Below, piece by piece: positions 4,245-58,563 of a stretch of DNA of 64,000 nt (positions are counted from its first letter, which is position 1; every line of letters starts with the position of its first letter). Under the pieces are notes generated by a model. The model was given only the letters and a program-made list of their open reading frames with translations, was not told the origin of the DNA and did not search any database. A program made the translations under genes and the position numbers. The DNA lies in assembly GCA_030765235.1 (NCBI GenBank), contig JAVCCW010000001.1, positions 35,172-99,171 of the forward strand, in the 5' to 3' direction. Source of the DNA: Candidatus Gorgyraea atricola. GTDB taxonomy: Bacteria; Omnitrophota; Gorgyraeia; Gorgyraeales; Gorgyraeaceae.

Positions 4245-4257
4245 TTTTAATGAGCAC

Positions 4258-8300: not shown

Positions 8301-10458
8301 AAGCGTCTTCTGCTCTTGGATCATCGAAATTACCTAATGCTTGAGTTGCAGCTTGGCGAACACGGCTTCTTTCATGTTTATCTCCCGATACTTCTATTAG
8401 AAGTCCTATTGCTTTCTCGCTCTGCATTCTGCTTAAACCTTCGGCTGCAGCTTCAAGAATAGCGCTATTTCTAATATTTCTATCCCTTGATCTTAATAGT
8501 CCTATCAAAGTTTTCTCTGCAGATACGCCTCCTATTCTGCCTAAGGCCCTGACAAAAGCCGCTTGACCATCTTTAGCTAATGCATTTTGCAAAGCCTCTA
8601 CTGCTACTTGGTCACCTATCTCTCCTAATATGTAGGCTATTTCTAAACGAACACGAATATCATCACTTGACTTTAACTCCTCTTTTAATAAATTTAAAGC
8701 TGCTTGACCTTGTTCTATTAACAATCCTGATATTGTCCTGACAGCTATTTTATTGCCAGACTCTATTGCCTCTTGCAATTGTTGCATCAAAAGACCTGCC
8801 GTGGCCACATTCTCTCCTGAAGCCAAATAATCTTTGACTGGCTGTAAGGCTTCAGCTAAAATACGCATCTTTTCTTTTCCGACTTCGCCAGCTAAGTCAA
8901 CTTCATTCGGTGTCTTAATCGGCACAAATTGGTCATCCCTGTCTATTACCACAGCAATATAGGGCCAGATTGTTGTAAAATCTCCTGTATAGCGCTCTAA
9001 TTGCAAACCAACATAAATATATTCAGTTGCGCCTATTGTCTCCTCGGTTTCTTTAACATCTATATATACTGGGATATCAACAGCATTGACTATTTCTGTT
9101 AATTCTTCAAAGCTTAATTTCTTATCATACTCATCAGAAAGTTTAAACTGATTAAATAAGCCGTCTACTGAAAGAAGAAACATCCCTGTATTAAAATATG
9201 GGTAAAGCCTCGACACTTCTTCTTTGCTCATTTTATCTACCGATTCACTTGCCTCTTTAGTAAAAGCTGGTTTTTCTACGATCTGTGTTGTCTTTCTGCC
9301 ATCTAGATATGTTATATCAGCATACAAACCGCCTTTTTCTCCTCTATTATCTCCTAACAGCGTCATAAAAACTGGCTCAGGTCTATTTTCTTTTTTGGCC
9401 TTAATGATTTCTTCCTCAAATAAGCCTTTTAATTCATCACTTACCTTACCCGCAGGATTGTTCATATGAGAATAAAAGATAAATTTGGTCTCATTTCTTT
9501 TTAATTCAGCCAATACATTGCTTAGGACAATCCACTTGATAAAATCCCAATGTCCAGCAGGATTAAAAACTAAATTGCCTTTCTGTGTCCTTAAAGGGTC
9601 TCCTGCCTTACCCATTTGAGTAGCAATACCTCTGTCTAATGCTTCTATGGTATTTTGCATATCTGCCCCAGTCATCTTCCCGTCTTTGACAGCTTTTCTT
9701 AATTGTCCTGCTTTTTTCTTTCGATATTCTTTCAGGAATTTATCAGTAGGATTAAGACGGATCTGCATGCCTTGTTTAAACACCTTCACGTTTTCTTTGC
9801 CATAACCAAAGTAATCATTGTCTTTCAATAGTTCTTTTACTGTATCTGCAGTTTGAAAGCTTACCATTATAACTTCGTCTTGCTGTAACTCAGGGTCATT
9901 AGCAGCTCTTTTTAAATCATCCCTGGCTTTAGCTGCTGCAGCAAACTTTAGCTCCAGAAATGAATGAGGATTAGCGTCGAGTCCTGGTATCACAAAACTA
10001 AAAGCGGCATTAAACAATCCTTTTGTCCTGGTAGAAAGGCCTCCTGCAGAAAAAGCAGAAGCACTTTTTATCTTTTTGCCAAGAGCAGTCCATCTAATGA
10101 TATCTTCCGTAGACTGTTTTCCCATAATTATTGCTTCGGAAGAACCCCGCATACTGCCTTTAATAGCATTGTTTTCGTAAGGAGTCATTCCTTGCCTTAT
10201 CTTTTCTTGAAATACCAGATTAATATCCTCTTCGGTCTCGTGATATTTATATTCTTTGAGTAGTTCTTGCTCATCTTGGATAATCTGAAGTTTCTCTAAT
10301 GTTTTTTTCTTGATCGGAATCCTTAAAGCAGTAGATTTATTGCAGGAATGTAATGGATAGGCGGTATTAGTCGAAAGAAATACTCCAACTAGAATAATGG
10401 CTATAACTTTGATGAAAGGAATTTTGATTTTATTTCTATGGCTCATTAGAATTGGCAT
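5380..10458 (-). CDS. giant secreted multidomain protein (1692 aa). It has an N-terminal signal peptide, a sugar-nucleotidyltransferase-like region, HEAT/PBS-lyase repeats and a Rossmann NAD-binding (epimerase-like) region.
   Basis: Signal peptide ...ILVGVFLSTNTAYPL. The HEAT block runs from about IRVRLEIAYILGEIGD to DPLVRKASAIGL. A GxxGxxG-like motif VVIGAAGMIGYEAALQLV is present. The domain calls come from motif inspection only. Confidence 0.75.
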   Translation of the reverse strand: MPILMSHRNKIKIPFIKVIAIILVGVFLSTNTAYPLHSCNKSTALRIPIKKKTLEKLQIIQDEQELLKEYKYHETEEDINLVFQEKIRQGMTPYENNAIKGSMRGSSEAIIMGKQSTEDIIRWTALGKKIKSASAFSAGGLSTRTKGLFNAAFSFVIPGLDANPHSFLELKFAAAAKARDDLKRAANDPELQQDEVIMVSFQTADTVKELLKDNDYFGYGKENVKVFKQGMQIRLNPTDKFLKEYRKKKAGQLRKAVKDGKMTGADMQNTIEALDRGIATQMGKAGDPLRTQKGNLVFNPAGHWDFIKWIVLSNVLAELKRNETKFIFYSHMNNPAGKVSDELKGLFEEEIIKAKKENRPEPVFMTLLGDNRGEKGGLYADITYLDGRKTTQIVEKPAFTKEASESVDKMSKEEVSRLYPYFNTGMFLLSVDGLFNQFKLSDEYDKKLSFEELTEIVNAVDIPVYIDVKETEETIGATEYIYVGLQLERYTGDFTTIWPYIAVVIDRDDQFVPIKTPNEVDLAGEVGKEKMRILAEALQPVKDYLASGENVATAGLLMQQLQEAIESGNKIAVRTISGLLIEQGQAALNLLKEELKSSDDIRVRLEIAYILGEIGDQVAVEALQNALAKDGQAAFVRALGRIGGVSAEKTLIGLLRSRDRNIRNSAILEAAAEGLSRMQSEKAIGLLIEVSGDKHERSRVRQAATQALGNFDDPRAEDALNNTLSNDSDPLVRKASAIGLRVKESINRVTVKGKTLALLTPAKKMKAIGHNRPKKYASFPSDVNNPVGNGVHVLFKNDNEPIKPGTKVVIGAAGMIGYEAALQLVNQDEEVVTVDNLLLGSPANDNIPGVKLLRQDSSSFCRQYRPEDYKKINGIVYLGGYSSEPQFVTRGFPQWLNWTGSPEEIAIKWNKMVDELSGSRKIDKITPEEVMYARINTKAEFGELLRILYNDFSPELALYAGRFPHCVTQEVLTSLYEFKTVMDLAVMYDIRTVFASTSSFCKLFPIGELVSEVPTLDILDKFVEIKDNHLEEKKWITPYEFMKLSMELVAKHYHHEYEADVYASRNFSVYNAGRQELQKGRNANMVAQTIWAIENNQSVPIFIMPGDFGRDVIFVSDLAKGILHILKHAKWEGTPENSAAVFNVGLKKVWGINEMIASIMRALSMGDLEKNIAYRMPTPGFPGTMIGDSSKIQSIGWKFDYPFEKALRHIFFANETEYEADVKKWESEHKPVAINKVQLTEDIGFKEIAAKVYKNGVYVLLLNEDDSLRGLYTDRKKIGLPDIKIYQGQDLYEDKDKPDVCTKNTGKIEEVAWTKWSFDYEQKVVPLRYDAENRSLVFLNGSNEISVGRQLGWVSEEVEQDSNAIERSVSHQIEDLVAKRVLKKAVEGVYLTLDDNVLLIYNQKNDNVELVVAKPHAGVMSDPITNSTIVRGLIKDDSYEGQQLCKLHAGNMDFVIDEEGRPRWIEFPEEIHLAEESTALVALNKDSNKFTVLGRNTTTAISTVLMLGGDTVEQIQERLRSGRDRDRNFLGENDDLKEELIKANIEVIDEQNLSHLKLGRVLVNGIALLDRVVGPGGMLAKPVRFYDRYTHFNFEISHEQSDRIASAFNERPTLSLRGKYRIKNLDTGKEIIFHGLLGENIIRWGFYGGPGAAEHFKIERKDLIELLGYNRTHLVLDFVDNLKTIKVRMGDL

Positions 10459-10461: not shown

Positions 10462-13400
10462 TTATAATTGATCTCTAGTATCAGGAAACCCTGATAATTG
10501 TTCTGTAAATGTACCGCTATCTTTAATAAACAATTCCGAAACGCTTGGAGCAGATAATACCCTAAGAGGGTACCCTTTTATGCACTGCTGCCAGCGAGGA
10601 CTCTTCTTTAACACATCTAAGAGTTTTATTTTTCTCTCATCCCCATCAATAGAAGCCTCACCATCTTCTACTAACTGTGTAGCCTCGATCCTATCTAGTC
10701 CGATAGACATAGACTCTATCCTGCCGATAAGCTCATCTTTGGTGATAGACCTCATGTTAAATAGATCTGCCACACCCTCACCTAATTGACTGTACTCTTT
10801 TATGTCCTTCCATGATAAATCCCATTTGTAATAAGCCCATTCTGTCAATCCCATATGATGACTCATCAGTTGCCGCATTTCTTCATTTTCAAAAATTTCC
10901 TTCAGCGGAGTATTTTCCATCTTGAAAATCTTACCATCAGATAGGTCAATATAAGCAGCTCCAGCATCTTCAAAACCACCAGTGCCTTCTTTTCTGGAAA
11001 CCTTAGCATCTATCAGCAATAACCTGCCATATGTCCCGACCTTGCTTATATGCCCCCCCATAATTAAATCCACATCGCAATCCTTTGCCATCCTCTGGGT
11101 GAGCATTTCGCCACTAAATGAGAAGCTTTTATCTTTTACACCAGTAAACTTATATACCGGATTATCCGACTCACCTTCGTTCAGAAAACTAAAACCAGAG
11201 AAATTCTTTACCTTAAGATAAAGCAGGGCATATTCTCCCATGGCCAAATTTGTATGTGCCCATTGAATAAGCTCTTCGTTATCAATATCTTCCCTTAGTC
11301 TTTCCCACATAAACTGAGCAAACTGCAAGAAGGTAAATCCTTTGATAAGATATTTCTTACCACTCTTGCGGTAATTATCCTTCTGAACTTTTAACTCTTT
11401 TATCTTAGCCCATTTTAAGAATTCCTTGAAATCTATGCGCTCTACTTCATACTCATGAACGCTCTTGTCTTGATCCATTGCCCAGGGCACGGTATGCATA
11501 AGAAGAATCTTTTCAGAGCCGGCCTCGACGATTTTATATAAATCACTTCTAAGCACGTCTTTCACTAATTTCTTGGCTTCAGGGCTCTTTTTAATATTCT
11601 CGGTTATCTCCTGCATAATCCCCTGCCAGTCCTCTGAAAGAATAGCCAAAGGACGATGCTTTTTTATAGCTTCTTTTATCTCATCTATGCTTCTATATTT
11701 ATTTGCATTTTCCTCAGACATCAAAGGCCAAAGATACTCAATGCGAGTTTTAGCAAACTGATAATCATCCGTTTCTGCTATTGAAATCAAATAAATCATT
11801 AATGCTGCTAATTCTGCTTTTGATTTTGGACCTCTCTTACTGATACCTGTAGCTTCATCTATTTTATTCTTCTCTTTTTCTTCTTCTATGCTAATTCCTT
11901 CATAACTTTTTTCAGCCAGGTTTTTGAATTTCTCTATAAGTTTTCGATCGATGCCTAAGTATCCTATCATATTATCCATTGCCTCTTTGCCATAGCGATA
12001 TCCATGCAAAATAGCATGGGTAATATAATCTGGTCTTCCTAAAGCAGCCAGCATAAACCAGAGGTCATGATTGCCAACCAGGATATCGGCCTCTTTCCAC
12101 ATCTCAGGAGCAATCCATGCAGGCCCCCTGTCAACCCAATCTCCAAGTATAGCCATCTTCACCTTACCTTTATATGTATTCTTTAAGGCCTTAAATAAGA
12201 CATTAATGGTTACAGTAGTACCATGCGGATCGCTAACAATAAAATACGTTTCCTTTTCCTGATCTAAATCTTTTACTGCGTCTTTTAAAGGCGTTAACCT
12301 ATCGCTATGAGTCTTTGTTCCTATAGTATATAAATACGCATACTTGGTTTCCGCATTGTATCTAAACAAAGTGATTGTTTTTTCATCTATAGATATGGAA
12401 TCCAGTGGTAAATGTTCAGCTGATGACAGCTGTATCTCCTGATAAGATACCCAGCCTTGTGTCTTGACGACCTTGCTGTATTCATTTGGATCTTTAGTAA
12501 ACAGAAATATCTTTTTTCCCTGCGTACGAGCATACGTAAATGTCCGTGATGTACAATTTTTATCTGAAGGTGGCCAGACCCAAATAATAAAATCGTCTTT
12601 CCCTAACTGCTCCATCATCCATTGCCCTCTTGCCGACCCCGTATCTCTCAAAGATCGTAAACCAATGATTCTATCATCAGGAGTCATTTCAAATTTGACC
12701 CCTTTGGACTCCAGATGTGGCTTTAATTCATGCGCTGTTAGGTTGTCAATGCTCTTTCCCAGCCCAACATGATTTAAATACTCTTGCGCTTCAGCTTTGG
12801 TAATTTTGTTTCTTTCAACATTAGCATAACTCTTTATTGTGTTCCCATCTACCAATCTCCATGGCCTTACATCTCTCTTATCTCTTCCCTGGCCCACCAT
12901 TGTAACTCGATTTCCCTTGCCTCGCTGTACCATTGTGCCTACAACTATCCGATCTATCCCCTGAGGATCTTCTCCGACCAATACCTCAACATTCCCCCTA
13001 TCAGCTAAAAGTTCAGCTACATCCCTTGCAAACTTTTTAGCATCATCATCCAGGTAATCACGGGTACCACCAAAAAGCACCTTTATCTTTAAATCCTTCT
13101 TCGCATCAAGGTATTCTTTAATATAAACTACATCACGCATAAGATGAATATTTTCTATAGGCGCTTTGCCTTTTATGGTTTCCAGATGTTGCTGGATTTC
13201 TGCAAGGGCGGGGATGCTGGGCGTTAGAATAGTTGTCTTGACTGTCTCCGCTTTTGGATGCTGAGGCTCAACATAAGTCACCTTTTCCTCATCAATAGAG
13301 AATATCTTTTTGCCTTCACCCTGTGCGTATTTAAATGTCCTGGATGTGTGTGAATCGCCTGTAGCAAAGAGCCAAACAACAGAGTCATCTTTTTCTTTGA

Positions 13401-15411
13401 GCTGATCTATTGTCCAGCGGCCTCGCATTGACTGTTTATCTCTATAACTTAGGCCACTTGTCATAGAAGATGGAACTAACTCAAAACTGACTCCTTCTGA
13501 CTCTAAGTGTCTTTTTATCTCCCCATAAGAGAGTCCATAAATATCTTTTACGATCCCGATAGCTTTTAAATATTCATTAACTTCACTTTTACTGAGGTCT
13601 CCTCTAGAGATATATCTTTTTAGCATGGTCTCATTGGTAACTCTCCATATCTCATCGTCTTTTACACCTACAATCACAAGACTGGATGGTTTACCTGTTT
13701 TAAAAAATGCTGCTATAGCCAGCCTATCTATGCTTGTAGGATCATCGCCGATAATTAACCGAACATTTTTATTCTGGGCTATAAGATTCGCAAAGACATC
13801 GATAAAAGATTCACCTTTAGTACCTAGATTCCTGCTTCCGCCAAAGAATATAGACGCTTTGCCTTTTATGGTTTCCAGATGTTGCTGGATTTCTGCAAGG
13901 GCGGGGATGCTGGGCGTTATATTTGGATTGGAGGCAAGGGATGTAGAAGGTTTGATATTAATTATATATTGTCCTTCTTTCTCTTCTATCACAAAATCTC
14001 CGTGTGTCTTTTCGATCTCAAGTGCCTTCCTGATATTTTCAACAGTAAGCCAATCTATCTCACTCGAGATTTTTTTTACTATATCTTGCGGCATCTTTTT
14101 TATAATTTTTGGGATTATTTTGTGAACTATCTCTTCTAGTTCTTTGTTGTTTTTCGCTGCCTCAGTCGCTGTAAGCAAAGTATATCTAAAGCTAGAAGCA
14201 CCTGAACATTCTATTCCCAGATCCATAAGCAGCTCCAATTGCTCCATATCTTTTGCTATATCAGATACTTCTGACAGCATAAGGCCGATTATACCTGCGT
14301 CGCCTTTGGTAAATCTTATGCTTAAATTGGGCAGCTGATTACACATATCTTTTAGTTCAGTTGTATTCTGTGCCAGTTTAGCTGCTGCGGAAACACCCCA
14401 TCTTCTAAAGGGATTATCAAGGTCTATATTATTCTTGTCGAATTCTATATTTAACTTAAGTAAATAATCACACATATCTTTTAGTTCAGTTGTATTCTGT
14501 GACACTTTTACTACTACTAGCATGTGAAGCTCTAAAGTATGACCAGGATATATTTTATTTTTAGCGAATTTTCTTGCAAGGCTGCGAATAAGTTTCAATG
14601 CATTCTTTCTTTCGGTGGCAATTGTGAACTTTTCATTTATCGCTTTTTCCACTGTTTTCCACTCCTTAAATATCCACCCAGGTCTTGTGCTAAATACCGC
14701 GCCTTTCTCTTCCAATGCCACAAGTGCAGCTTGGCCTCTAGGATCTTCCACATCCTTAACTATAACCATCAATTCTGGGATAGATTTTTCTTTTCCATAT
14801 AATCCCATAAATTCTTTTACCAGCATAACCTGTTTATATAAATCCTCTTTTTCTGTGACTATGTTTCCTTCTCTATCTTCATTGTATCTATCTAAAATAT
14901 TTTTTGTCTCAACAAAATCAAATATAGGAGCTTCTTTTAAAATTACAGAAACTACTTTATCATCTTGCATATAAGTAATACCTGTTATAGCCTCCTCATT
15001 AAATTCCAGATGAGATTCTATGGAAGAAATTAAAGCAACTATCTTGGTTCCATCCTTTCTTTCTGCTATAGAAGCCTTTCCTTCATCGATCAACTTTTGA
15101 ACTCTATCTTTAGACATTGCTTTTTCAGGATATAGAGAGGCGACTTCTTTAACTGTAGCAAGATAATTTAATGCTTCTTCTGATGTTAGGTATCTTGAAA
15201 GGTCATATTTTCTTAAAAATAACGCTTTTTGGGTCTCTTGTATGCGCTCATCATTCCTGCGACTATCCAGCCTCACCCTAAGATTTTCAGATAAATCATC
15301 AGAAAGCGCGTATGAAGAATTTGCAAGTAGAAAAGTTACGAGGATTATAAAACTTATCGTTTTCCCCATCTTCTTGCCCCCCCTTAATAATACTTTGTTA
15401 AGGTCTAACAT
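10462..15411 (-). CDS. giant secreted multidomain protein (1649 aa). It has a signal peptide, two tandem DprA/SLOG-like Rossmann modules and a PPP-family metallophosphatase domain.
   Basis: Signal peptide ISFIILVTFLLANSSYAL. A duplicated module of about 250 aa (FGGSR...GIDR...) is present. The metallophosphatase motifs GDWVDRGP and GNHD are present. It lies 4 nt upstream of the 5380..10458 gene, suggesting an operon. Confidence 0.75.
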   Translation of the reverse strand: MLDLNKVLLRGGKKMGKTISFIILVTFLLANSSYALSDDLSENLRVRLDSRRNDERIQETQKALFLRKYDLSRYLTSEEALNYLATVKEVASLYPEKAMSKDRVQKLIDEGKASIAERKDGTKIVALISSIESHLEFNEEAITGITYMQDDKVVSVILKEAPIFDFVETKNILDRYNEDREGNIVTEKEDLYKQVMLVKEFMGLYGKEKSIPELMVIVKDVEDPRGQAALVALEEKGAVFSTRPGWIFKEWKTVEKAINEKFTIATERKNALKLIRSLARKFAKNKIYPGHTLELHMLVVVKVSQNTTELKDMCDYLLKLNIEFDKNNIDLDNPFRRWGVSAAAKLAQNTTELKDMCNQLPNLSIRFTKGDAGIIGLMLSEVSDIAKDMEQLELLMDLGIECSGASSFRYTLLTATEAAKNNKELEEIVHKIIPKIIKKMPQDIVKKISSEIDWLTVENIRKALEIEKTHGDFVIEEKEGQYIINIKPSTSLASNPNITPSIPALAEIQQHLETIKGKASIFFGGSRNLGTKGESFIDVFANLIAQNKNVRLIIGDDPTSIDRLAIAAFFKTGKPSSLVIVGVKDDEIWRVTNETMLKRYISRGDLSKSEVNEYLKAIGIVKDIYGLSYGEIKRHLESEGVSFELVPSSMTSGLSYRDKQSMRGRWTIDQLKEKDDSVVWLFATGDSHTSRTFKYAQGEGKKIFSIDEEKVTYVEPQHPKAETVKTTILTPSIPALAEIQQHLETIKGKAPIENIHLMRDVVYIKEYLDAKKDLKIKVLFGGTRDYLDDDAKKFARDVAELLADRGNVEVLVGEDPQGIDRIVVGTMVQRGKGNRVTMVGQGRDKRDVRPWRLVDGNTIKSYANVERNKITKAEAQEYLNHVGLGKSIDNLTAHELKPHLESKGVKFEMTPDDRIIGLRSLRDTGSARGQWMMEQLGKDDFIIWVWPPSDKNCTSRTFTYARTQGKKIFLFTKDPNEYSKVVKTQGWVSYQEIQLSSAEHLPLDSISIDEKTITLFRYNAETKYAYLYTIGTKTHSDRLTPLKDAVKDLDQEKETYFIVSDPHGTTVTINVLFKALKNTYKGKVKMAILGDWVDRGPAWIAPEMWKEADILVGNHDLWFMLAALGRPDYITHAILHGYRYGKEAMDNMIGYLGIDRKLIEKFKNLAEKSYEGISIEEEKEKNKIDEATGISKRGPKSKAELAALMIYLISIAETDDYQFAKTRIEYLWPLMSEENANKYRSIDEIKEAIKKHRPLAILSEDWQGIMQEITENIKKSPEAKKLVKDVLRSDLYKIVEAGSEKILLMHTVPWAMDQDKSVHEYEVERIDFKEFLKWAKIKELKVQKDNYRKSGKKYLIKGFTFLQFAQFMWERLREDIDNEELIQWAHTNLAMGEYALLYLKVKNFSGFSFLNEGESDNPVYKFTGVKDKSFSFSGEMLTQRMAKDCDVDLIMGGHISKVGTYGRLLLIDAKVSRKEGTGGFEDAGAAYIDLSDGKIFKMENTPLKEIFENEEMRQLMSHHMGLTEWAYYKWDLSWKDIKEYSQLGEGVADLFNMRSITKDELIGRIESMSIGLDRIEATQLVEDGEASIDGDERKIKLLDVLKKSPRWQQCIKGYPLRVLSAPSVSELFIKDSGTFTEQLSGFPDTRDQL
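13162..13226. repeat. 65-bp perfect direct repeat, copy 1, inside the giant gene (internal domain duplication)
   Basis: It is identical to 13855-13919 and encodes TPSIPALAEIQQHLETIKGKA. Confidence 0.9.
13855..13919. repeat. 65-bp perfect direct repeat, copy 2
   Basis: identical to 13162-13226. Confidence 0.9.
14341..14372. repeat. 32-bp direct repeat, copy 1, inside the giant gene
   Basis: acacatatcttttagttcagttgtattctgtg, repeated at 14470-14501. It encodes QNTTELKDMC. Confidence 0.85.
14470..14501. repeat. 32-bp direct repeat, copy 2
   Basis: identical to 14341-14372. Confidence 0.85.
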
Positions 15412-15556: not shown

Positions 15557-16780
15557 CTATAGCGTTACCACATCATTCTCGTTATAGAGCGAGAGGAATA
15601 GGAGCATATATTCCTTTAAATGGCGGGTCAGGAGGAAGTTTTGTCTTATGTGCTCGCGGCCGTTCTCGCCAAGTTTCTTAGCATAGTCAGGCGCGTTCAA
15701 GAGCTGTTTTATGGCAAATGCCGCGCCTTCTATAGTGTGGCATAAAAGTCCGCCGTATTTGTGCTTTATCTGTAGAGGTATGCCTCCTACAGCTGATGCA
15801 ACAACTGGCTTACCTTTCCATAAGGCCTCTGAAACAGTAAGAGCAAAACCCTCTCTCAAGGACTTCTGAACAACCACATCTGCGACTCTCTGAAATACAT
15901 TTATCTCATAAGGAATATCTTCGACAAGCAATGCGTGGATATCAGGATCATTTCCTTTTGCCTCAAGGACCTGCTTGTATATCTTATCTGTCTCAGGATC
16001 ATCTGCTGCGCGATTCCCCACCAGAAGAAGCTGGCAATCTACGTATTTCTTTACCAGTTTATACGCCTCTATAACTCCCACAGGATCTTTGAGCGCGTCA
16101 TATCGGGAGATCTGGCACACGATAGGCTTTGCCTGCGGGTCGATCTTGTATTTATTCAATACCGTATCTATTTCCTTCTGTGTGACCTCTCTATTCTTAT
16201 CGCTAAAAGGGTCTATGGATGGTGATATTAAGATCTGTCGCGGTTTCATGGTGTGAGAAAAATGCGCGCTGGAAAATACCGCGGTATCATACTTATTAAA
16301 AAATCCTTCCAGGAAATGCCAGACATTTTTTTCTGGCTTTGAAACATCCACGTGACAACGCCATATCCATTTGCTATTTTTCATCTTAGGCTTTCTCTTG
16401 ATCAATGCTATGGGCTGCGGGTCGTGTATGAACATGATGTCCCCATACAGATTCATCTCTCTTATATTCTGCGCGCTGATATCATTAAAGATATCCCACA
16501 TCTTATTCGTAATCCTGGCTTCTTTTCCATGCAGGGCATTATGCATACTCTTTGTAACATCAAAAAAATCTGGAGAGCCCTTTATTACGTCCCACTGCGC
16601 GCTGACCTTGAGTTCCTGCATAAGAGGCGTGATCTTGGAGAGTATCTCAGCTACACCCCCGCCCATAGCAGTGGAATTGATATGCTGTATGGTCTTGCCC
16701 TTTAGATAGCCGGCAAGCATCCTTAGCTCATCTACAGTGCTTTTCCCAACTACCTCTTCGTATCTTTCAAGCATTGACAT
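15557..16780 (-). CDS. treT: trehalose glycosyltransferring synthase (TreT, GT4 family)
   Basis: Strong colinear similarity to archaeal TreT as recalled: NSTAMGGGVAEIL, WRCHVDVS, HDPQP, QISRYD, QLLLVG, SLREGFALTVSEALWKGKPVVASAVGGIPLQI. Confidence 0.8.
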   Translation of the reverse strand: MSMLERYEEVVGKSTVDELRMLAGYLKGKTIQHINSTAMGGGVAEILSKITPLMQELKVSAQWDVIKGSPDFFDVTKSMHNALHGKEARITNKMWDIFNDISAQNIREMNLYGDIMFIHDPQPIALIKRKPKMKNSKWIWRCHVDVSKPEKNVWHFLEGFFNKYDTAVFSSAHFSHTMKPRQILISPSIDPFSDKNREVTQKEIDTVLNKYKIDPQAKPIVCQISRYDALKDPVGVIEAYKLVKKYVDCQLLLVGNRAADDPETDKIYKQVLEAKGNDPDIHALLVEDIPYEINVFQRVADVVVQKSLREGFALTVSEALWKGKPVVASAVGGIPLQIKHKYGGLLCHTIEGAAFAIKQLLNAPDYAKKLGENGREHIRQNFLLTRHLKEYMLLFLSLYNENDVVTL

Positions 16781-17441
16781 TTTTTAATCTCTCTTCCACT
16801 AGATCTATTATCTTCTTCCTTAAATCTTCCATTGTATATGTATACGGATCCAGGGACTGCAGTTTATACGCAAGTTCCTTCTCTCCTAAAGACGTGCCCA
16901 GCCAGAAAGAAAAATCATTCGTCTCTTTGTCCAGGCGAAGCCTAGCCTCAAACATGTGAAAATATATTGAATTAACCGTGATCTTCTCCAATATCTCCAA
17001 AAAATCCTTGAGGGTCTTTGCCACATATGGCGTGGTTATAATAAAACTGATGCTCTTTATAAAATGAAATCTCTTCTCAGGCGAGGCAAATCTCAGCTTT
17101 ACACTAGGACATCCTTTTATGTGTTCGCTTATGATCCTTACTATCTCGTTCCTCAATAGTCTTATGGTATGGAACTGGATCGTGTCAATACTCGCGACCT
17201 TCTCTGCCAGCACATCTTCATTTAGGGCGCTCGCTATCCAATAGCTAAAATCATTCGGAGGTTCAGGGGAAAGACTTTCGTGCTGCTGCAGGAAATGATG
17301 GGTATGATAGTAAATAGATGAGCCAGGTACCTTTTTAATAAGATCCAAGAGCTCTGTTATATTAGAGGCCTTGAGACTCGTGAGGACTCTTAGATGAAGA
17401 CGCGTAGAAAATCTGAAGCTCTTGTCATTATCTTTGCCCAT
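16767..17441 (-). CDS. hypothetical protein with an internal two-fold domain duplication. It is conserved between otsB and treT.
   Basis: Two homologous halves (...SIYYHTHHF...NDFSYWIASALNE... and ...SIYFHMFEARL...NDFSFWLGTSLGE...). It overlaps both neighbours by about 14-17 nt, consistent with an operon. Confidence 0.55.
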   Translation of the reverse strand: MGKDNDKSFRFSTRLHLRVLTSLKASNITELLDLIKKVPGSSIYYHTHHFLQQHESLSPEPPNDFSYWIASALNEDVLAEKVASIDTIQFHTIRLLRNEIVRIISEHIKGCPSVKLRFASPEKRFHFIKSISFIITTPYVAKTLKDFLEILEKITVNSIYFHMFEARLRLDKETNDFSFWLGTSLGEKELAYKLQSLDPYTYTMEDLRKKIIDLVEERLKNVNA

Positions 17442-17456: not shown

Positions 17457-18251
17457 TCACAGATCAAGCATTCTTTCTATAAAAAGTTTCACTTCACTCG
17501 TGTTTTTTAAAAAATAATCCGCCTTGCTTTTTATTTTCCTGGGCCCCACGAATATGGATATGCCTTTGCCCTTAATGGCCTTAAATGCATCTTCATCAGT
17601 AACATCATCGCCTATATGTATAGGTAGCGCGCGTTTATATTTCTTAAGCAGGCATAGCACTGCCTTGCCCTTGTCCCATTCAATGCCAGGCCTTACCTCT
17701 AAAACCATCTTACCTGCTGAGCTTTTAAGTTTTCTTGAAAGGACATATGGAGCCACGATTCTACTAAATGCTCTTTTAACTAATATTCTCTTCGCAGGCT
17801 TTACGAGCCTGTAATGCACGCTCAGCGTACAGCCTTTGTCCTCCACTATTACACCTTTAATATCAGCCAATGCCTTGTTTAACTTTGAAGTTACCTGTTC
17901 CACCGCGTAGGTGGAATTAATTCCACCTACGCGGTGGAACAGGTTTGCTCCATCCTCTATCTCCAAGCCATGATTCCCAGCATATACAATACCCTTGATG
18001 CCAACCATTTTCTTTACATTTGCCAGAGACCTTCCGCTTATAATAGCGAGTTTAAATCTAGGGTCTTTCTTTAGTTTTTTTAAGGAGTTTCTTACTGCTG
18101 GAGAGATCTTTGCCAATTCTGGCGTTGCCACAATAGGTGTAAGCGTGCCATCATAATCAAAAAATAAAAATGTCAAAGGAGATTTTTGTATCTGAGGGGA
18201 AATCTTGGCCCAACTGCTAAAAAGATATTTCATGTCATTCTTTAAATTCAA
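17457..18251 (-). CDS. otsB: trehalose-6-phosphate phosphatase (HAD-IIB)
   Basis: FFDYDGTLTP, GRSL, and the GDDVTDEDAF HAD motifs. Confidence 0.8.
   Translation of the reverse strand: MNLKNDMKYLFSSWAKISPQIQKSPLTFLFFDYDGTLTPIVATPELAKISPAVRNSLKKLKKDPRFKLAIISGRSLANVKKMVGIKGIVYAGNHGLEIEDGANLFHRVGGINSTYAVEQVTSKLNKALADIKGVIVEDKGCTLSVHYRLVKPAKRILVKRAFSRIVAPYVLSRKLKSSAGKMVLEVRPGIEWDKGKAVLCLLKKYKRALPIHIGDDVTDEDAFKAIKGKGISIFVGPRKIKSKADYFLKNTSEVKLFIERMLDL
17895..17943. repeat. 48-bp perfect palindrome (24+24, no spacer) inside the otsB coding frame
   Basis: ctgttccaccgcgtaggtggaatt|aattccacctacgcggtggaacag, encoding LFHRVGGINSTYAVEQ. Confidence 0.9.
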
Positions 18252-21330: not shown

Positions 21331-24300
21331 TTACATTGAACTATCTAGTACCTTGCTTCTTTTCTCTATGGTATCTAATATGCTAGGTCTTGCCTTCTCT
21401 AATATATCAGCTACTTCATCAAAATATGCCTTGAGCGCATGTCTTGTATCTTCATTGTTCTCATCAAATATAAGACTCATTGCCCAGCCAGGCTTATCCT
21501 TAGCAACTAATTTTCCATCTTCTAATTTCTGGCCGTCCTCTCGCTTAATATCATATCCAGAAAGTGCCAGGAGATTACCCAGCCAGTGCATCTTTAAATA
21601 ATCAGATGAATACTTGACATTTGAGTTCTTAAATTGCTCAAGATGATTCATGCCGATTAAAGATGTAGTAAGACACTTCTGAGCAGCCTTAATCATGGCA
21701 TGATATGCATGACCTGAGCCAGGAAGCTTGCCTACGTCAGCAAACTTTTTCAGGGTCTTTCTCCATAATACATCATCTCCATGATTCAATACATCCCGCA
21801 TGGCCAAACCATCTTTAGTATAAGATGTCTCACCAGAGTGCGCCAATTCGCCATATTCAATATCCCCTTTCTTTAGAGCAATACTGTGGATAGCTGCAGA
21901 TACATGGGCTGGATCAAATATATTTAGAGCCCTGCCTGTTTTGGCAGAAAGAGCTTCGAGTTCATTTATCAATTCCTCTTCTGTAAACAATCCCCTCTGT
22001 ACCATAGCATGCCAATTCAAGGTAATCTCATCTTTTGTAGCTGCATAGCGGCTTTCTGTTATAGCCTTAATTGTCCTTGTAAAATTAGCCTTCTTAAGCC
22101 TCATCCAGTCCACAATCTTTTTATAAAACTCTACTGGTGGCTGGTCTACTGCGCATATATTCCACTGCTCTGCAACGCCGAATACTGACCAGTGAACTAC
22201 ACTCATTATCCTGGCTAAAAGCACCTTATCATCAAGCTGTTGTGCTGCCTCATCATCATCAAAGTCTAAGACCATAACTGAATATCCAGCCTTCTTTAGC
22301 TGATCTATCTTTTTCTCAGAAACATTCGTCAATCCTTTGACTCGTATAACCAAAAATGCCTTGTCATTCTTACCAGTGACAACAGGCTCGCAGTTTTTGA
22401 GGTCTAAATCATCATTCATCACTATCTTTAATAAATGGTCCCTGTCTTTACCCAAAGACTCTTCAAAATCCTGCTTAATCCAGAGCGCTCCATCTTCCCA
22501 CGCGCCTTTTGAAGTATCGCCCTGCCATTCTTTGGGTATGGTAGTTACTATCTTGTTAATGCCTTGCTTCTCATTCATCACCATCCATGCGGAAACCGGC
22601 ATGGATTTTCCAAGAACTTCCTCTTCTTTAATATTAGCTGCGCTAACCCATTTTTGTAAGTCAATACCTGCCAGGGCTAAGGGCAAAAGCATACCATTAG
22701 TATAAGGCCCGTCATGCCTGCCTGATGTAGTAGCATTGCCTTTTAAATTAGGCATGCTTGCATCAGCTTGATCAGGCTGGTGCACGATCCTTTGGCAACC
22801 TTCTAAAGCTTTATCCACATATGAATTATCAATAGTAATCTTGTAAAAATGATCCTCTAGTTTAAGTCCATATTCTGCAAAGATTGGCTTTAAGGCATTA
22901 TCTGCATTATACACAGGCTCATAAGATGTCATACCTAAGGCCTGAGCAACAACCACGGTCTTTTTTAAACCCCTTTTCAAGGCTATCTCATAATCCAAGT
23001 CTAACTCACCTGATTTTTCTCTCTCTTGCTCAACTATTTTGTCGTATATAAACTGCAATGTCTCAGAATCCACATTGTCCACTCCGAAAAATATAAGCTT
23101 CTTTCCATTAACCCCCTCAATAGCTTTAGTAGCAATAGCGGCATTCTTATCCTCTATAGACCCGCCCATGCCTGGCCAGATAACATATTCTACATCTGTT
23201 TCGTAGGCATCGTTTAAGCGTTTGTTTATACCCTTTGCTGTCTTCTGGGTCCTCTCTATTAGCTTAGGGCCCAGCTCAGGATCATTAAGCGCCTTTCCTA
23301 AATAAAATGCGCCAAGATTTATCTTATTCACCTTACCTGGCTCAGAACTAGGCTCGCAAAACACCTCGATAAGCGGATGGTCTCCAATATTTAACTTTTC
23401 CGGATCCTGCGACGTCTTATTCTTCTCATCCCAGAACAAAGGATTCCAAATCCCTTCTTTTAAGGCATCATAAATCTTCTTCGCAAGCGTCCTGATGTTT
23501 TTCTTTGTAGGGAGAATTGGCGCTTCTTCCTTCACAGGCGTCATCCTAGTTATGTCCCGCTTGCGAGCTGTTACCTTTTCAGGACCATCGGGTAACTGCA
23601 ATCCTAACTCTTCAAAACCATTTATCTTTATCCCTTCCATGCTAACCTCGAAAGGCACATAGCCCTTTAAATTTCCTGTACCATGAATAATTTTTTTTGC
23701 TTCTACTTCTGTCAAAAGGTCTATCCCCATCGCTTTTAGGATATCTATAGCAGCTTGTTTTGTTTCTTCTGTTATCACTCCTATATTAGATGAGGGTCCT
23801 CCTGCACCTAAAGGCTGCGCTGCTATATGCGCCTCGTTTAGTTTCTGAACTGCACTATGTATGGGTTCCATTGTGTAAAGACTCATCTCTCTAAGTTTCT
23901 CGCCACCTATTCTGTCGTATAATTCTTTAACTAACCCATATTTGTCTTTATGTTTTTCTTCAAAAGCCAGTTCTGCAAATTTAGACGCATAACCAGGCAA
24001 CCCTGTTTTGCCTTCATGCGCATCAATTGCATTCCTTATCCAAATCCTGCAAAGCTCATCCCGTATCCAGACATATCTTAATACACCATCGATTAACGTA
24101 TGCCAATCTCCCTCTTTGTATGCCTGGGCATTTCGTGCTGTTATGGCTTTGAATTCCCCGAGTAAGTCTATTCCCTCTTTAATTCTAAAGCGTATAAAAT
24201 CTGTCCACATCTCATTAATCAACGCTGCTGTCCTATCGTCATCCGCTTCTCCATCTGTATACCCCTTGCCTGCCTGGACTAAAAGAAAGCGGTCTTCTAT

Positions 24301-26502
24301 CTCTTTTATTTTTTCTTCAGTGGTCGCTAATGGTATTGCTAATGCCCCGTAAGTATTAACAAGTTCTCCTTTTTCGTTTTTCTGTCCAGATCTCCATACT
24401 TGCTGGTGTATTCCGCCTGTTAAAAAACAAAGATGACCCTGGCCGCCTGTCAGACCTCTAAATACATCATTCTCGAGTTTTACTGCTAAGGCAAAGATAT
24501 CTGCTTGGCTGAGGTTTGCTCCGCTTAATATACTTGCAGCTGTTATGACTGACATGCTAAAACCATTTGAAGATTCCATGCCTCCTGCCAATGCCATTGC
24601 AGGAACAGGAGGACATGTTATCCTTATGCCTTTTAATCCACAGAGATTAGCAAATACAAAAGCTGGCAAAAATCTCATATGTGCTGTACCGTTTTCATCG
24701 AGTGCTACATTTCCTTTCACTACGAGAGGTTCGTCTTCTGGGATTCCATAATCAGGAGCAACATATTCTATAGCATCCGGATCATCTGCTGCTTCGATTT
24801 TTATAGTTATGCCCATCTTGCTTGCTATAGCAACTGTTGATGGAAATTCCTCTATTTTTTTAGCTTCAATTTCAGTGTACTCGTCTTGGAACTCAGGTAG
24901 ATCCAGGCTTGAACCGCCTATTACATCTGATCCCCTTAACTGTCCAGATACAGATGTTTCGATGTCGTTTTTCTTTGCTTCTAATAATTTATTTCTTGCT
25001 TCCTCAGCGCTTACACTAGGATTAACCCATTTTTTTAACTGCTTTTCGCTCACGCGTTTACGTAATCCAAAATTTATCTTTGGGTCAAACAAATATCCTT
25101 CCACCAGCACTGCGTCTCTTACTGCTTTTCTTACCTGCGTCAGGGTCTCCTCACCTGCTCTATCCAATGTGCCTCTCTGAAGCCCCTTGCCTATTACCTT
25201 TTCTGCTGCCACTTGCATGTCTTTTAAGTCTTCATGGGTAAGACCATCAAATTCAGGTGTAAATGCAGTTGTGCCGTCTTTTCTTCGTTCGATAATCCCT
25301 AACCGCTCACCGAGTCTAAATTCAGCATCAATTGTATAATCTGAAAATGGTTCTCCTGATTTTCTATCCCTTCCTGCCTCTTTCCTCACCTGTTTTAGAT
25401 TACTGGTATTGCATACACCTACTTGATCTATAAGCGTATCCAATAGACCATAGAAAGCCCCTTCGGTCTTGGGTTTAGCGTCTAAACTAAACGCAAGACC
25501 AGCGAGTGGTTCAGCACTTATTATATTTGCAAGCATTTTCCTGAGTGCTCCCTTGGCCTTTAAAGGATTATCTGGCCACCAACCTTTATCCATAATTCTT
25601 TTTATGCCCTTATAACCTTTTGCAACCAAAAACTTGTAATGTTCTGGTTTATTTAATTTAAGCAATTTAAAGAAATCGTCTATTTTGTAGGAGTGCAAAG
25701 ATTGATAAACCATGATATCATACATAGGTATGCCAACATCCCATAGATATCTTACATGTTCATCAATAACCCATTCTGGATCATCTGTTTCCTTATTCTT
25801 GTGCATTATCTCCTCTAATATCCTTTCAAAAATAACACGTGACAATGTATCAGTATAGTTCGCTTTCATATGTTTATAATACTTCTCGTCGTCCTTATTA
25901 GTAAGGCCTTCTCCTAGTATGTAACGCTCATATAAATGATGAATCCCCTCGTCAATTGCTATATAAACTGTCTTATTTTTCTCGTCATAATATCTCCTTG
26001 CTTGAGCCTTAAGAACACCTGACTTAACTGAAATAAATTTTATTTCTTTGGCACCCAAATTCCATTCCTTGCGAAAGTTTTTAGCAAAGATATCTAGAGC
26101 CAACTCTTGGGTCGGCAGTAATCTTCCAAAAAATCCATTAAAAATATCTACTACAAACCGCTCTAATTTATCTTCATGTGATGGCAAATCGGTAGTAATT
26201 AGATCACGTGGCTTCGCATCATCTATAGCAATACCTTCTAAAAAATCTTTCATATTTGCTGTTTCCTCAATCTTATTCTCCTTACTCAATACCTCTCTTA
26301 AGGTCGGCCCTGGCATGACTACGCCCATTATAAAGCTCTCGCCTTCTTTGGCAGCCTTGCTAGTCTGTTCTACCATACCAGGATTTCCCTGTAAGGCAGG
26401 CCGCAATGAGTTGGAACTGGGGATTGCATATGCTGTATTAGTTAATAGGAAGGTTATGATGGTAAGCGTAGAGATGATTCTATTACATAGATTGCTCTTC
26501 AT
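21331..26502 (-). CDS. giant secreted multidomain protein (1723 aa). A GHMP-kinase-like motif region and a sugar-phosphate-isomerase-like region are suspected.
   Basis: Signal peptide IISTLTIITFLLTNTAYAIP is paralogous to those of the other two giant proteins. AGGMESSNGFSMSVITAAS resembles the GHMP PxGSGLGSSAA motif. TSGRHDGPYTNG is loosely PGI-like. Both domain calls are weak. Confidence 0.7.
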   Translation of the reverse strand: MKSNLCNRIISTLTIITFLLTNTAYAIPSSNSLRPALQGNPGMVEQTSKAAKEGESFIMGVVMPGPTLREVLSKENKIEETANMKDFLEGIAIDDAKPRDLITTDLPSHEDKLERFVVDIFNGFFGRLLPTQELALDIFAKNFRKEWNLGAKEIKFISVKSGVLKAQARRYYDEKNKTVYIAIDEGIHHLYERYILGEGLTNKDDEKYYKHMKANYTDTLSRVIFERILEEIMHKNKETDDPEWVIDEHVRYLWDVGIPMYDIMVYQSLHSYKIDDFFKLLKLNKPEHYKFLVAKGYKGIKRIMDKGWWPDNPLKAKGALRKMLANIISAEPLAGLAFSLDAKPKTEGAFYGLLDTLIDQVGVCNTSNLKQVRKEAGRDRKSGEPFSDYTIDAEFRLGERLGIIERRKDGTTAFTPEFDGLTHEDLKDMQVAAEKVIGKGLQRGTLDRAGEETLTQVRKAVRDAVLVEGYLFDPKINFGLRKRVSEKQLKKWVNPSVSAEEARNKLLEAKKNDIETSVSGQLRGSDVIGGSSLDLPEFQDEYTEIEAKKIEEFPSTVAIASKMGITIKIEAADDPDAIEYVAPDYGIPEDEPLVVKGNVALDENGTAHMRFLPAFVFANLCGLKGIRITCPPVPAMALAGGMESSNGFSMSVITAASILSGANLSQADIFALAVKLENDVFRGLTGGQGHLCFLTGGIHQQVWRSGQKNEKGELVNTYGALAIPLATTEEKIKEIEDRFLLVQAGKGYTDGEADDDRTAALINEMWTDFIRFRIKEGIDLLGEFKAITARNAQAYKEGDWHTLIDGVLRYVWIRDELCRIWIRNAIDAHEGKTGLPGYASKFAELAFEEKHKDKYGLVKELYDRIGGEKLREMSLYTMEPIHSAVQKLNEAHIAAQPLGAGGPSSNIGVITEETKQAAIDILKAMGIDLLTEVEAKKIIHGTGNLKGYVPFEVSMEGIKINGFEELGLQLPDGPEKVTARKRDITRMTPVKEEAPILPTKKNIRTLAKKIYDALKEGIWNPLFWDEKNKTSQDPEKLNIGDHPLIEVFCEPSSEPGKVNKINLGAFYLGKALNDPELGPKLIERTQKTAKGINKRLNDAYETDVEYVIWPGMGGSIEDKNAAIATKAIEGVNGKKLIFFGVDNVDSETLQFIYDKIVEQEREKSGELDLDYEIALKRGLKKTVVVAQALGMTSYEPVYNADNALKPIFAEYGLKLEDHFYKITIDNSYVDKALEGCQRIVHQPDQADASMPNLKGNATTSGRHDGPYTNGMLLPLALAGIDLQKWVSAANIKEEEVLGKSMPVSAWMVMNEKQGINKIVTTIPKEWQGDTSKGAWEDGALWIKQDFEESLGKDRDHLLKIVMNDDLDLKNCEPVVTGKNDKAFLVIRVKGLTNVSEKKIDQLKKAGYSVMVLDFDDDEAAQQLDDKVLLARIMSVVHWSVFGVAEQWNICAVDQPPVEFYKKIVDWMRLKKANFTRTIKAITESRYAATKDEITLNWHAMVQRGLFTEEELINELEALSAKTGRALNIFDPAHVSAAIHSIALKKGDIEYGELAHSGETSYTKDGLAMRDVLNHGDDVLWRKTLKKFADVGKLPGSGHAYHAMIKAAQKCLTTSLIGMNHLEQFKNSNVKYSSDYLKMHWLGNLLALSGYDIKREDGQKLEDGKLVAKDKPGWAMSLIFDENNEDTRHALKAYFDEVADILEKARPSILDTIEKRSKVLDSSM

Positions 26503-29090: not shown

Positions 29091-29722
29091 ATGTCCTCCG
29101 GTATCCCGATATCAACCACTATAACTTCACCCGTATGCTCTGGACCTTTATTGATATAAAATCCCTTTTTAGGAAATTGCATTGTTACTGTCTTAGTTGC
29201 CCTTATTGCCTCACCTAAAACTTCGCCAGTATCTGCGTTCAGGCCTGACGGAACGTCTATTGAAAGAATCGGTATATTTCTTTTATTCAAATCTGCGATG
29301 ATCGATCTAGCTGGCTCCCTAACTTCACCCTTCAAACCTATCCCAAATATAGCATCTATAAGTAACTGAGGTCGGACCTCGAACACTTGATGTTCGAGGT
29401 CCGACCTCGGCACTATCTCTTCTACAGCAACACCGATCTTCATCAACTTATCCAAATTTATCTTTGGATCATTCTTTATGCTGGATATTTTACCTATTAT
29501 ATATACCTGAACCTCTGCTCCCTTATTGGCCAAATGCCTCGCAGCTACAAGCCCGTCCCCTCCATTATTGCCTGTGCCACAGAATATTGCAACCCTTTTT
29601 GCAGAAACCTCCTCTGCCACCTTGCGGCCTGCATTTTCCATGAGCACAATTGAGGCAATACCAATCTCCTCTATTGTCTTGCGGTCCATTTCCTGCATCT
29701 CTTTCACGCTGACTCTCCGCAT
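29078..29722 (-). CDS. nnr: NAD(P)H-hydrate epimerase (YjeF N-terminal domain)
   Basis: LMENAGRKVAEEV...FCGTGNNGGDGLVAARHL. The track ORF extends to a GTG at 29791, but the start at M24 (29722) is more plausible. Confidence 0.7.
   Translation of the reverse strand: MRRVSVKEMQEMDRKTIEEIGIASIVLMENAGRKVAEEVSAKRVAIFCGTGNNGGDGLVAARHLANKGAEVQVYIIGKISSIKNDPKINLDKLMKIGVAVEEIVPRSDLEHQVFEVRPQLLIDAIFGIGLKGEVREPARSIIADLNKRNIPILSIDVPSGLNADTGEVLGEAIRATKTVTMQFPKKGFYINKGPEHTGEVIVVDIGIPEDICAG
29368..29408. repeat. 18-bp-arm palindrome with a 5-nt spacer inside the nnr coding frame
   Basis: gaggtcggacctcgaaca-cttga-tgttcgaggtccgacctc. Confidence 0.85.
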
Positions 29723-29800
29723 AGGCCCATGTATTATAACACCCCTCACTTTATAGGGCAAGGTTGAACCTTTAATGGGGATATGATACACTTATAGACA

Positions 29801-33778: not shown

Positions 33779-33804
33779 GTAGGCCAGGTTTAAACCTGGC
33801 CTAC
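33779..33804. other. 26-bp perfect palindrome between the radical SAM gene and the small ORF
   Basis: gtaggccaggttt|aaacctggcctac. Confidence 0.5.
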
Positions 33805-53340: not shown

Positions 53341-53354
53341 TTTTTCTGTCAAGT

Positions 53355-53397
53355 CTTTTTTTCAAGGCGAAACCTCCGCCATGTTACATGGCGGAGG
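53355..53397. terminator. 20-bp-arm perfect palindrome, probable terminator after the ThiI-like gene
   Basis: aaggcgaaacctccgccatgt|tacatggcggaggtttcgcctt is preceded by T7 on the plus strand. Confidence 0.55.
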
Positions 53398-53409
53398 TTT
53401 CGCCTTGGC

Positions 53410-55766: not shown

Positions 55767-55951
55767 TTAGCAAGTGGGTGCCCTCTTAGATGTTTGGTGT
55801 TCCCTAGCTCCTAAGAACCAGGTCTACAGCCACACCTAACGTTAGGCTCCCAATTTAATGGTGTTGGCTCAAAAACTTCCTTTTCACCGCGCGCGCTGCA
55901 GGGATACCTATATTATAGCATAAAGAGCTGAATAAATCAACTCGGCGCCCC

Positions 55952-58520: not shown

Positions 58521-58563
58521 CTAAAGTAGACAAATCAGTCAGTGACTGTTTTGTCTACTTTAG
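58521..58563. repeat. palindromic REP-like element, copy B, flanked by a 19-nt imperfect direct repeat
   Basis: ctaaagtagacaaa-N14-tttgtctactttag. The flanks are cttccgcgtaagttccgcg and cttccgcgtggttccgcg. Confidence 0.85.

Follow-up and report, generated by a model that had tools for sequence, protein, structure and literature searches.

Two perfect inverted repeats lie in frame within protein-coding genes of Candidatus Gorgyraea atricola (Omnitrophota), in a stretch of 64,000 nucleotides of contig JAVCCW010000001.1 (positions 35,172 to 99,171, forward strand), which is referred to below as the window. One is located in otsB and the other in nnr, and they represent two different families, here named family 1 and family 2. 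Our favoured explanation, to which we give a probability of about 0.8, is that both are small non-autonomous hairpin repeats of the repetitive extragenic palindromic (REP) or REP doublet forming hairpin (REPIN) type, which became fixed inside coding sequence. The four features concerned are listed below; L-numbers here and in the text are our handles for loci used for comparison.

17893 to 17944, no strand assigned: family-1 REP doublet (REPIN-like), a 52-bp perfect palindrome, based on its symmetry, dispersed copies and hairpin prediction
17457 to 18251, minus strand: otsB, trehalose-6-phosphate phosphatase, host gene of family 1, based on Pfam Trehalose_PPase (2.3e-45) and orthologues
29368 to 29408, no strand assigned: family-2 palindrome, 18+5+18 nt (GAGGTCGGACCTCGAACA-CTTGA-TGTTCGAGGTCCGACCTC), based on its arms, a copy in L175 and hairpin prediction
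29078 to 29791, minus strand: nnr (YjeF_N), NAD(P)H-hydrate epimerase, host gene of family 2, based on Pfam YjeF_N (4.4e-49)

In-frame palindromes in otsB and nnr

The otsB palindrome, which a preliminary description had given as 24+24 nt at 17895-17943, is real and in frame, but actually consists of two perfect 26 nt arms without a spacer at 17893-17944 (ACCTGTTCCACCGCGTAGGTGGAATT and AATTCCACCTACGCGGTGGAACAGGT). Its first half is composed of a basal stem ACCTGTTCC, a core ACC-GCGTA-GGT with GTAG inside, and an apex GGAATTAATTCC, and its second half contains the mirrored core ACC-TACGC-GGT followed by the basal stem GGAACAGGT, while each arm also forms a 7-bp stem of its own (TTCCACC-GCGTA-GGTGGAA). 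The palindrome lies entirely within the minus-strand open reading frame (ORF) at 17457-18251, where it is translated as NLFHRVGGINSTYAVEQV, so that the OtsB protein reads GANLFHRVGGINSTYAVEQVTSK across it, and as the palindrome is centred exactly between two codons, its arms are codon-by-codon mirror images. The gene is part of an otsA-otsB-DUF5752-treT operon, in which the DUF5752 gene (window 16767-17441, minus strand) separates otsB from the gene for the TreT-type trehalose synthase throughout the clade; as a conserved, uncharacterised partner of trehalose genes it may merit attention.

The nnr palindrome has the arms and spacer that had been described, with 18 nt arms (29368-29385 and 29391-29408) that are 100% complementary and separated by 5 nt, and it lies inside the YjeF_N reading frame, with PRSDLEHQVFEVRP as its in-frame product. 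The true start of nnr is likely to be the Met at 29722 (ORF 29078-29722, 214 aa), as chosen by NCBI, whose protein entry for Ca. Gorgyraea atricola matches Nnr at 100% identity. Palindromes of this length had been called statistically implausible in coding DNA, which was borne out, with approximately 1e-11 perfect palindromes with 26-bp arms expected in 64 kb (our own arithmetic). The 19-nt otsB half-site and the 18-nt nnr arm were found in the window only at their own sites, with 0.01-0.02 occurrences expected (a range covering both). As RNA, the palindromes were predicted to fold into hairpins of -52.6 kcal/mol (otsB, z = -13.3) and -39.5 kcal/mol (nnr, z = -9.5). Searches of Rfam returned only look-alikes of microRNA hairpins, all below threshold.

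Perfect palindromes without a spacer are the classic signature of fold-back chimeras, which arise during library preparation or assembly. In independent assemblies of other samples, an ENA contig (L003, 99.97% identical over 2872 nt) contains the otsB palindrome and a JGI contig (L192, 100% identical over 1447 nt) contains the nnr palindrome, which excludes a fold-back assembly artefact for both. Palindromes are also present at the same sites in the diverged relatives L091, L092 and L095, and both reading frames are intact, leaving practically no chance for an artefactual origin. Perfect palindromes of 40-50 bp do resemble artefacts, are likely to break short-read assemblies and can mislead gene callers.

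Orthologues of OtsB are nearly all 255-261 aa in length, and the residues encoded by the palindrome align without gaps to a region of variable sequence bounded by the conserved GNHGLEIE and IKG motifs. The palindrome is thus not an insertion by length; it stands in for an equally long native segment, with encoded residues that are lineage-specific and not conserved core sequence. AlphaFold models of OtsB and Nnr were made with alignments of 22 sequences each. The OtsB model has a mean predicted local distance difference test (pLDDT) score of 90.8, and in this model the element residues 103-120 (pLDDT 74-82) span the last part of a beta-strand, a turn and the initial turns of a cap-domain helix. 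A search of genome contigs with the OtsB alignment profile gave relatives with at most 49% identity among the matches listed. Two distant OtsB orthologues (P0044 and P0042) were flagged by a test for mirror symmetry at the peptide level, and were discarded as their DNA has no palindromes there. In Nnr, which is 7 residues longer than most of its orthologues, PRSDLEHQVFEVRP sits in an indel-rich loop, and the element residues 104-119 were modelled with low confidence (pLDDT 65-69) as coil or surface loop. The proposal that the palindromes add peptide segments to their host proteins consequently applies to nnr, with 7 additional residues compared to the empty site of L092, but not to otsB, which has no added length.

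Dispersed copies of the two families

Metagenome contigs were scanned with the pattern ACCGCGTAGGT-N{0,12}-ACCTACGCGGT (22 fixed bases), which gave 93 loci, or 92 distinct sites after removal of duplicates, with approximately one chance match expected (our own estimate, for a collection of unstated size). Searching for relatives of the palindromes as a single sequence family, as initially envisaged, was productive in that it gave 92 otsB-type sites and a second nnr-type site, but the two types belong to separate families. Neither family was present in a collection of viral contigs.

From the outside to the inside, family-1 elements consist of (A)ACC and a variable basal stem, the core ACC-GCGTA-GGT, an apex, the mirrored core ACC-TACGC-GGT, and the mirrored stem ending in GGT(T). 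The apex is variable and self-complementary, with GGAATTAATTCC, TGCC-NNN-GGCA, GCGC-ACC-GCGC and GTAAATAC among the versions found. The sequences GC-GTAG-GT and AC-CTAC-GC are present at 92/92 sites, but this is imposed by the search pattern, and the otsB copy of L091 has GGAG instead. The mini-hairpin of each arm extends beyond ACC/GGT by 1.5 bp on average versus 0.6 bp in a permutation control, a modest difference on which we do not rely. Essentially the same 50-52-bp palindrome as in otsB was found at 15 other loci with unrelated flanks, having basal stems CCTGTTCC (n = 9), CCTCTTCC (n = 4) or CCTTTTCC (n = 1), with a central T-to-C change in the remaining one. No direct repeat indicative of target-site duplication was detected at the borders of the 16 copies of the window subtype. 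The neighbouring proteins of at least seven copies have exact matches, or matches in clusters at ≥90%, to the accession block MBU1146739-MBU1148416 of a Gorgyraea-like Omnitrophota metagenome-assembled genome (MAG), and a Ca. Gorgyraea atricola protein is among the members of one of these protein clusters. Many of the copies are therefore carried by one and the same genome, that of a close relative.

The positions of the 92 family-1 sites relative to genes were as follows.

Between a stop codon and the next start codon of co-directional genes: 36/92
Next to a stop codon only: 19/92
Next to a start codon only: 16/92
Between two stop codons: 3/92
No gene boundary within 40 nt: 12/92
Scored as inside an ORF: 6/92

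Hence 86/92 sites were not scored as inside an ORF. The six 'inside' cases comprise the otsB site itself (window, L003 and L092), TsaB-like genes in L122 and L180, and L108, where the element is really located just upstream of the start of SecA. Both TsaB-like genes (Pfam TsaD, 4.5e-23 and 6.4e-30) contain true in-frame copies, at different positions. All intragenic family-1 copies are translated in the ..RVG.. frame, the remaining two frames being closed by a TAG in the core and, in the subtype of the window, by a TAA at the centre, and because the element is a palindrome the open frame is identical on both strands. Many family-1 copies end at the 3′ side in GGAGGTGGT, GGGGTGGTT or GGGGGAAGGT at 5-25 nt before a start codon (for example L144 8124-8175, L146 821-855, L152 722-756 and L139 2020-2073), and the element may thereby provide a Shine-Dalgarno sequence or conceal one.

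The second family-2 site was found at an unrelated locus in L175, as CTGTTCGAGGCCGAACCTCGAACA-AAGC-TGTTCGAGGTTCGGCCTCGAACAG, its loop variant being the one seen in nnr of L091 and L095. This copy is in frame within a gene for an AcrB-family transporter, where a single Pfam ACR_tran match (7e-62) spans the copy, and the same contig holds a family-1 copy as well. No further family-2 units with free loops were found beyond nnr and L175 in 1.9 Mb of fetched loci.

Orthologous sites in related lineages

Syntenic DNA was compared for four related lineages, with nucleotide identities of 85-95% in otsA. The otsB site of L091 holds a perfect palindrome of 25+25 nt with four changes per arm relative to the window, all of them mirrored, without G:U (G:T) intermediates and with transversions in 3/4 pairs; one of the mirrored pairs adjoins the centre, and cannot pair in a hairpin. 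The closest relative of the window by otsA, L092 (94.5%), reads CCTATCC-GACCGCGTAGGTC-(GACCTACGCGGTC)x3-GGATAGG at this site (17336-17400), sharing the core ACCGCGTAGGT / ACCTACGCGGT with the window while having three mirrored changes in the basal stem and extra 13-nt units, which give 7 more encoded residues than in the window. The three tandem GACCTACGCGGTC repeats represent 39 nt, which keeps the frame, and the unit is read in all three phases (RPTRSTYAVDLRG). The flanks of the element are trimmed differently in L092 than in the window and L091.

Another relative, L084, has an otsB gene (1674-2441) that is approximately 79% identical to that of the window clade, next to an otsA gene (194-1672) with 90-92% identity, suggesting a recombination breakpoint between the two genes, and this otsB is best read as an element-free allele acquired by recombination, or as an outgroup allele. 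We considered AGTGG-GA-CCACT in L084 as a decayed element, but rejected this in favour of native sequence, as the encoded NILKSGSGTT resembles EILKPKGAST and otsB is 79% identical versus 90-92% for otsA.

At the nnr site, the palindrome is present in L091 and L095 with two mirrored changes compared to the window, and L091 has an 18-nt partial unit of the window type (GAGGTCGGACCTGGTGTC, 4236-4253) just upstream of a full doublet with the other loop variant, giving 6 additional residues. In L092 the nnr site is empty, with the usual orthologue sequence, and relative to this the 41-nt element of the window accounts for a gain of 21 nt. Orthologous copies thus stay perfectly paired over approximately 10% nucleotide divergence, and their mirrored loop variants recur among the dispersed copies. 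This strict symmetry could result from selection on the hairpin, from copying of one arm to the other by template switching, or from exchange between family members. With alleles that range from element-free through two symmetric forms to an expanded one, the otsB site offers a clean natural series for investigating the persistence of hairpin repeats, the maintenance of their symmetry and their incorporation into protein-coding sequence.

Template switching at quasi-palindromes (Ripley; the Lovett laboratory; Monttinen & Loytynoja 2022) reportedly creates perfect inverted repeats, with several 'compensatory' changes per event. A fold-back error of this kind might have perfected a quasi-palindrome in place in each gene and maintained it afterwards, with no mobile element involved, which would fit the unchanged length of otsB, the gain of approximately one arm in nnr, and the strictly mirrored differences between lineages, including the centre-adjacent pair that is unable to pair in the hairpin. 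The three tandem 13-nt units of L092 and the 18-nt partial duplication of L091 are likewise typical products of slippage. We had considered this explanation on account of the equal length and the mirrored changes, but dropped it in view of the dispersed identical copies: template switching could explain matching arms, but is a local process that does not explain identical copies at many loci. The identical 50-52-bp sequence is present at 15 other, unrelated loci, the core at 92 sites, and the nnr doublet recurs in an AcrB-type gene, and as the independent rise of identical 50-bp sequences is not credible, a purely local origin is highly improbable. After insertion of a mobile repeat, template switching may still keep the arms identical.

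The stability of the predicted hairpins (z = -13 for otsB and -9.5 for nnr) also allows for selection as cis-regulatory structures, in which the RNA or DNA hairpin would have a job at each place, such as stabilisation or processing of operon mRNA, a site for a double-strand-specific RNase, control of translation initiation, or a protein-binding site, and the otsB and nnr copies would tune the expression of their own operons. The 36/92 copies located exactly between stop and start codons, and the many copies that end in the Shine-Dalgarno-like GGAGGTGGT or GGGGTGGTT ahead of a start codon, are consistent with such a role, as are the paired changes that preserve perfect pairing and the known effects of REPs on mRNA stability and termination (PMC3733652). 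However, copies are found beside or inside unrelated genes and in either orientation, and there are element-free alleles of otsB (L084) and nnr (L092) within the clade. The lack of G:U intermediates and the transversions in 3/4 otsB pairs furthermore fit symmetry at the DNA level better than selection on RNA. We thus consider it distinctly unlikely that regulation accounts for the elements, and a regulatory role of stable mRNA hairpins, which is possible given the folding predictions, would complement an origin as mobile repeats and not replace it.

A further possibility, which we hold only tentatively and think rather unlikely, is that resident copies are repeatedly renewed in place by the current repeat variant of the lineage, via RAYT-mediated or recombinational exchange, which would amount to concerted evolution of orthologous REPINs, and that the otsB copy has been co-opted as a structural module of the enzyme. 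Observations pointing towards renewal in place are the mirrored-only differences, the different subtype with extra units at the same otsB site in L092, the 18-nt remnant of the window type in nnr of L091, and the loss of native sequence on integration.

Family-1 elements flank a probable REP-associated tyrosine transposase gene in one contig

In L117, a 210-aa ORF (1079-1711) has family-1 palindromes on either side, at 1000-1046 and at 1703-1742, the latter overlapping its stop codon. The encoded protein matches Pfam Y1_Tnp (30.2 bits, cut-off 23) and NCBIfam REP_Tyr_transpos, the REP-associated tyrosine transposase (RAYT) family (E = 1.4e-20), and contains the HUH (MPTHFHLI) and YxxxNP (YIHINPV) motifs. 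REP/RAYT systems are defined by a transposase gene with its own repeats on both sides (PMC3733652; PMC3116915), and from the arrangement in L117, together with the established behaviour of REP/RAYT and IS200/IS605 systems, we infer that the family-1 elements of this lineage are mobilised by a RAYT.

Other RAYT-like Y1 transposase genes in the fetched loci are flanked by inverted repeats containing GGGGACAC, and are listed below.

L190, 2812-3294
L100, 793-1275 and 8459-8968
L189, 1-446
L135, 10811-11011

The partial RAYT gene of L135 was considered as the Gorgyraea-type partner of family 1, but was rejected because its relatives in L189, L190 and L100 are flanked by the unrelated GGGGACAC repeats. 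These repeats fit the GGGGWSAS motif of the 'TIRYT' elements (PMC3733652), and they are a different repeat system present in the same kinds of samples.

In the scheme that we propose, family 1 would be an inverted doublet around ACC-GCGTA-GGT and ACC-TACGC-GGT carrying the GTAG/CTAC tag, with stems that vary by subfamily, and the elements would be copied as single-stranded DNA hairpins by a RAYT of the HUH/Y1 type. New copies would mostly land in short intergenic spacers, and an intragenic copy would survive only if it is both in the stop-free frame and at a site where the protein can accommodate altered sequence. Both window copies would have been kept because they hit the single open frame at a change-tolerant position: in otsB the element would have taken the place of the strand-turn-helix segment with which the cap domain begins, whereas the nnr copy would have made a surface loop 7 residues longer. 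After fixation, copies would be passed on vertically and remain perfect hairpins, so that sister lineages differ by mirrored changes only. That the copies are neutral for the host proteins, and how their symmetry is kept, are likewise points that we infer.

Several findings weigh against this scheme. The RAYT link consists of one short contig (L117), the NCBIfam score of 73.7 bits is below the curated cut-off of 80, and among the RAYT-like genes of the fetched loci none flanked by family-1 elements was found for the Gorgyraea lineage. The 64-kb window contains just one copy each of families 1 and 2, and the GTAG sequence is base-paired within the long hairpin, unlike the unpaired GTAG tail of classical REPs. 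Family 2 has no GTAG tag, no link to a transposase, and two known sites that are both intragenic. Finally, simple insertion does not predict a zero or partial gain in length, as seen with a net gain of 0 for the 52-nt otsB copy and of 21 nt for the 41-nt nnr copy.

Miniature inverted-repeat transposable elements (MITEs), which depend on DDE transposases, have terminal inverted repeats around a body, generate target-site duplications, and are 70-300 bp in length. If the families described here were MITEs, or other repeats moved by a DDE transposase or a site-specific recombinase, the RAYT gene of L117 would be a coincidental neighbour. The single RAYT association and the missing GTAG tag of family 2 would agree with this, and CGTC-type REPs provide a precedent for repeats without a dedicated transposase (PMC3733652). 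The elements are instead continuous hairpins of approximately 50 bp without terminal inverted repeats around a body, and the 16 copies of the window subtype have no target-site duplication. With the element on both flanks of the L117 gene, one overlapping its stop codon, and with GTAG/CTAC tags in three families of the window (see below for the others), we consider this alternative very unlikely.

Comparison with known palindromic repeats

The closest known kind of element is the GTAG-type REP/REPIN with its RAYT (Nunvar 2010; Bertels & Rainey 2011, PMC3116915; Di Nocera 2013, PMC3733652). Shared properties are the short palindromic units with GTAG/CTAC (in family 1 and two further families of the window, but not in family 2), the inverted doublets that fold into one long hairpin, the tandem clusters of units, and the dozens of dispersed copies located mainly in short spacers of co-directional genes. 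Both also have subfamilies with complementary changes in the stem and lack target-site duplications, and a Y1/HUH gene flanked by the repeat was seen here once, in L117. Families of GTAG REPs with dimers, clusters, in-frame intragenic copies and RAYT-flanking REPs have already been described (PMC3733652), and compensatory changes are common in REPIN hairpin doublets (PMC3116915). Unlike in GTAG REPs, the conserved part of family 1 is an 11-nt core inside the stem, with variable basal and apical stems, and in many copies the palindrome is perfect right to the centre or close to it.

Intragenic REPs have been reported in Opitutus terrae, Thauera and Xanthomonas, in recB, uvrA and other genes (Di Nocera et al. 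2013, PMC3733652), with the highest number in the verrucomicrobium O. terrae (PMC3733652). As in those cases, the whole unit lies in frame within an ORF of known function. The intragenic REPs of Di Nocera et al. 2013 are monomers or dimers that add approximately 20-30 residues, thought to be located in loops or linkers, whereas the otsB copy replaces a structured segment at equal length and adds no residues. The present case also differs in that orthologous copies were traced through three lineages, a fourth having an allele that lacks the element, and in the hosts, which are otsB, nnr, tsaB and acrB-like genes instead of DNA repair genes.

The preliminary description had compared the palindromes to Rickettsia palindromic elements (RPEs) in a different lineage. 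Classical RPE-1 elements are approximately 100-150 bp in length and encode approximately 30-50 residues. The comparison holds in its essentials, in that dispersed palindromic repeats are found in frame in functional genes and are translated as peptide segments, but the elements are not members of the RPEs, and GTAG-type REP/REPINs provide a better fit. Going by the descriptions of size and tag, they are set apart from RPEs by their length of 41-52 bp, by the GTAG tag and RAYT link of family 1, and by the extragenic position of most copies. Among the RPEs, RPE-4 and RPE-6 are REP-type repeats with a CGTC tag, a class of repeats that has no known transposase (PMC3733652).

No description of REPs, RAYTs or palindromic repeats was found in papers on Omnitrophota genomes, and our results extend REP/REPIN-type hairpin repeats, and probably RAYTs as well, to this phylum, which is known almost solely from metagenomes. 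Distinctive here are the conserved 11-nt core in the stem and a well-resolved in-frame case in which part of a folded domain is replaced. The core provides a simple marker for locating family-1 elements.

Other palindromes and features of the window

Three further palindromes of REP-like form are located in intergenic regions of the window.

33779 to 33804, no strand assigned: GTAG-GCCAGGTTTAAACCTGGC-CTAC palindrome, another REP-like family, with identical 27-28-nt copies in L105, L119, L121 and L153
48402 to 48444, no strand assigned: CTAAA-GTAG-ACAAAACAGTCA..TGAC..TTTGT-CTAC-TTTAG, a further REP-like family with dispersed copies, first copy in the window
58521 to 58563, no strand assigned: second window copy of the same GTAG-tagged family

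Copies of the 48402/58521 family were found in L127, L143 (two copies), L178 and L188, contigs that have family-1 copies too. As both families are dispersed and have the form GTAG-stem-loop-CTAC, the genome contains several REP-like families. Another intergenic palindrome (53352-53418), with 33-nt arms that are 85% complementary, shares GCGGAGGTTT with a GTAG-CGGAGGTTTAAACCTCCG-CTAC palindrome that adjoins family-1 copies in L097 and L100, and on the strength of this shared sequence may represent yet another REP-like family.

A 1723-aa ORF (21331-26502, minus strand) between the TP_methylase and MscS-channel genes was found in the window only. At its place there is nothing in L091 (6352-8203) and L089 (6421-8209), and a 236-aa ORF in L092 (12548-15251), a distribution that suggests a giant gene inserted specifically in this lineage. 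The window contains two further giant ORFs (5380-10458 and 10462-15411). The glmS gene of the window (27267-29090, 607 aa) has no intein, while that of a more distant relative (L089 3482-6418, L090 3260-6418) carries one, with Intein_splicing and LAGLIDADG_3 domains. Lastly, a 6S RNA (SsrS) gene is located at 55722-55907 on the minus strand, with a full-length match to Rfam RF00013 (87 bits).

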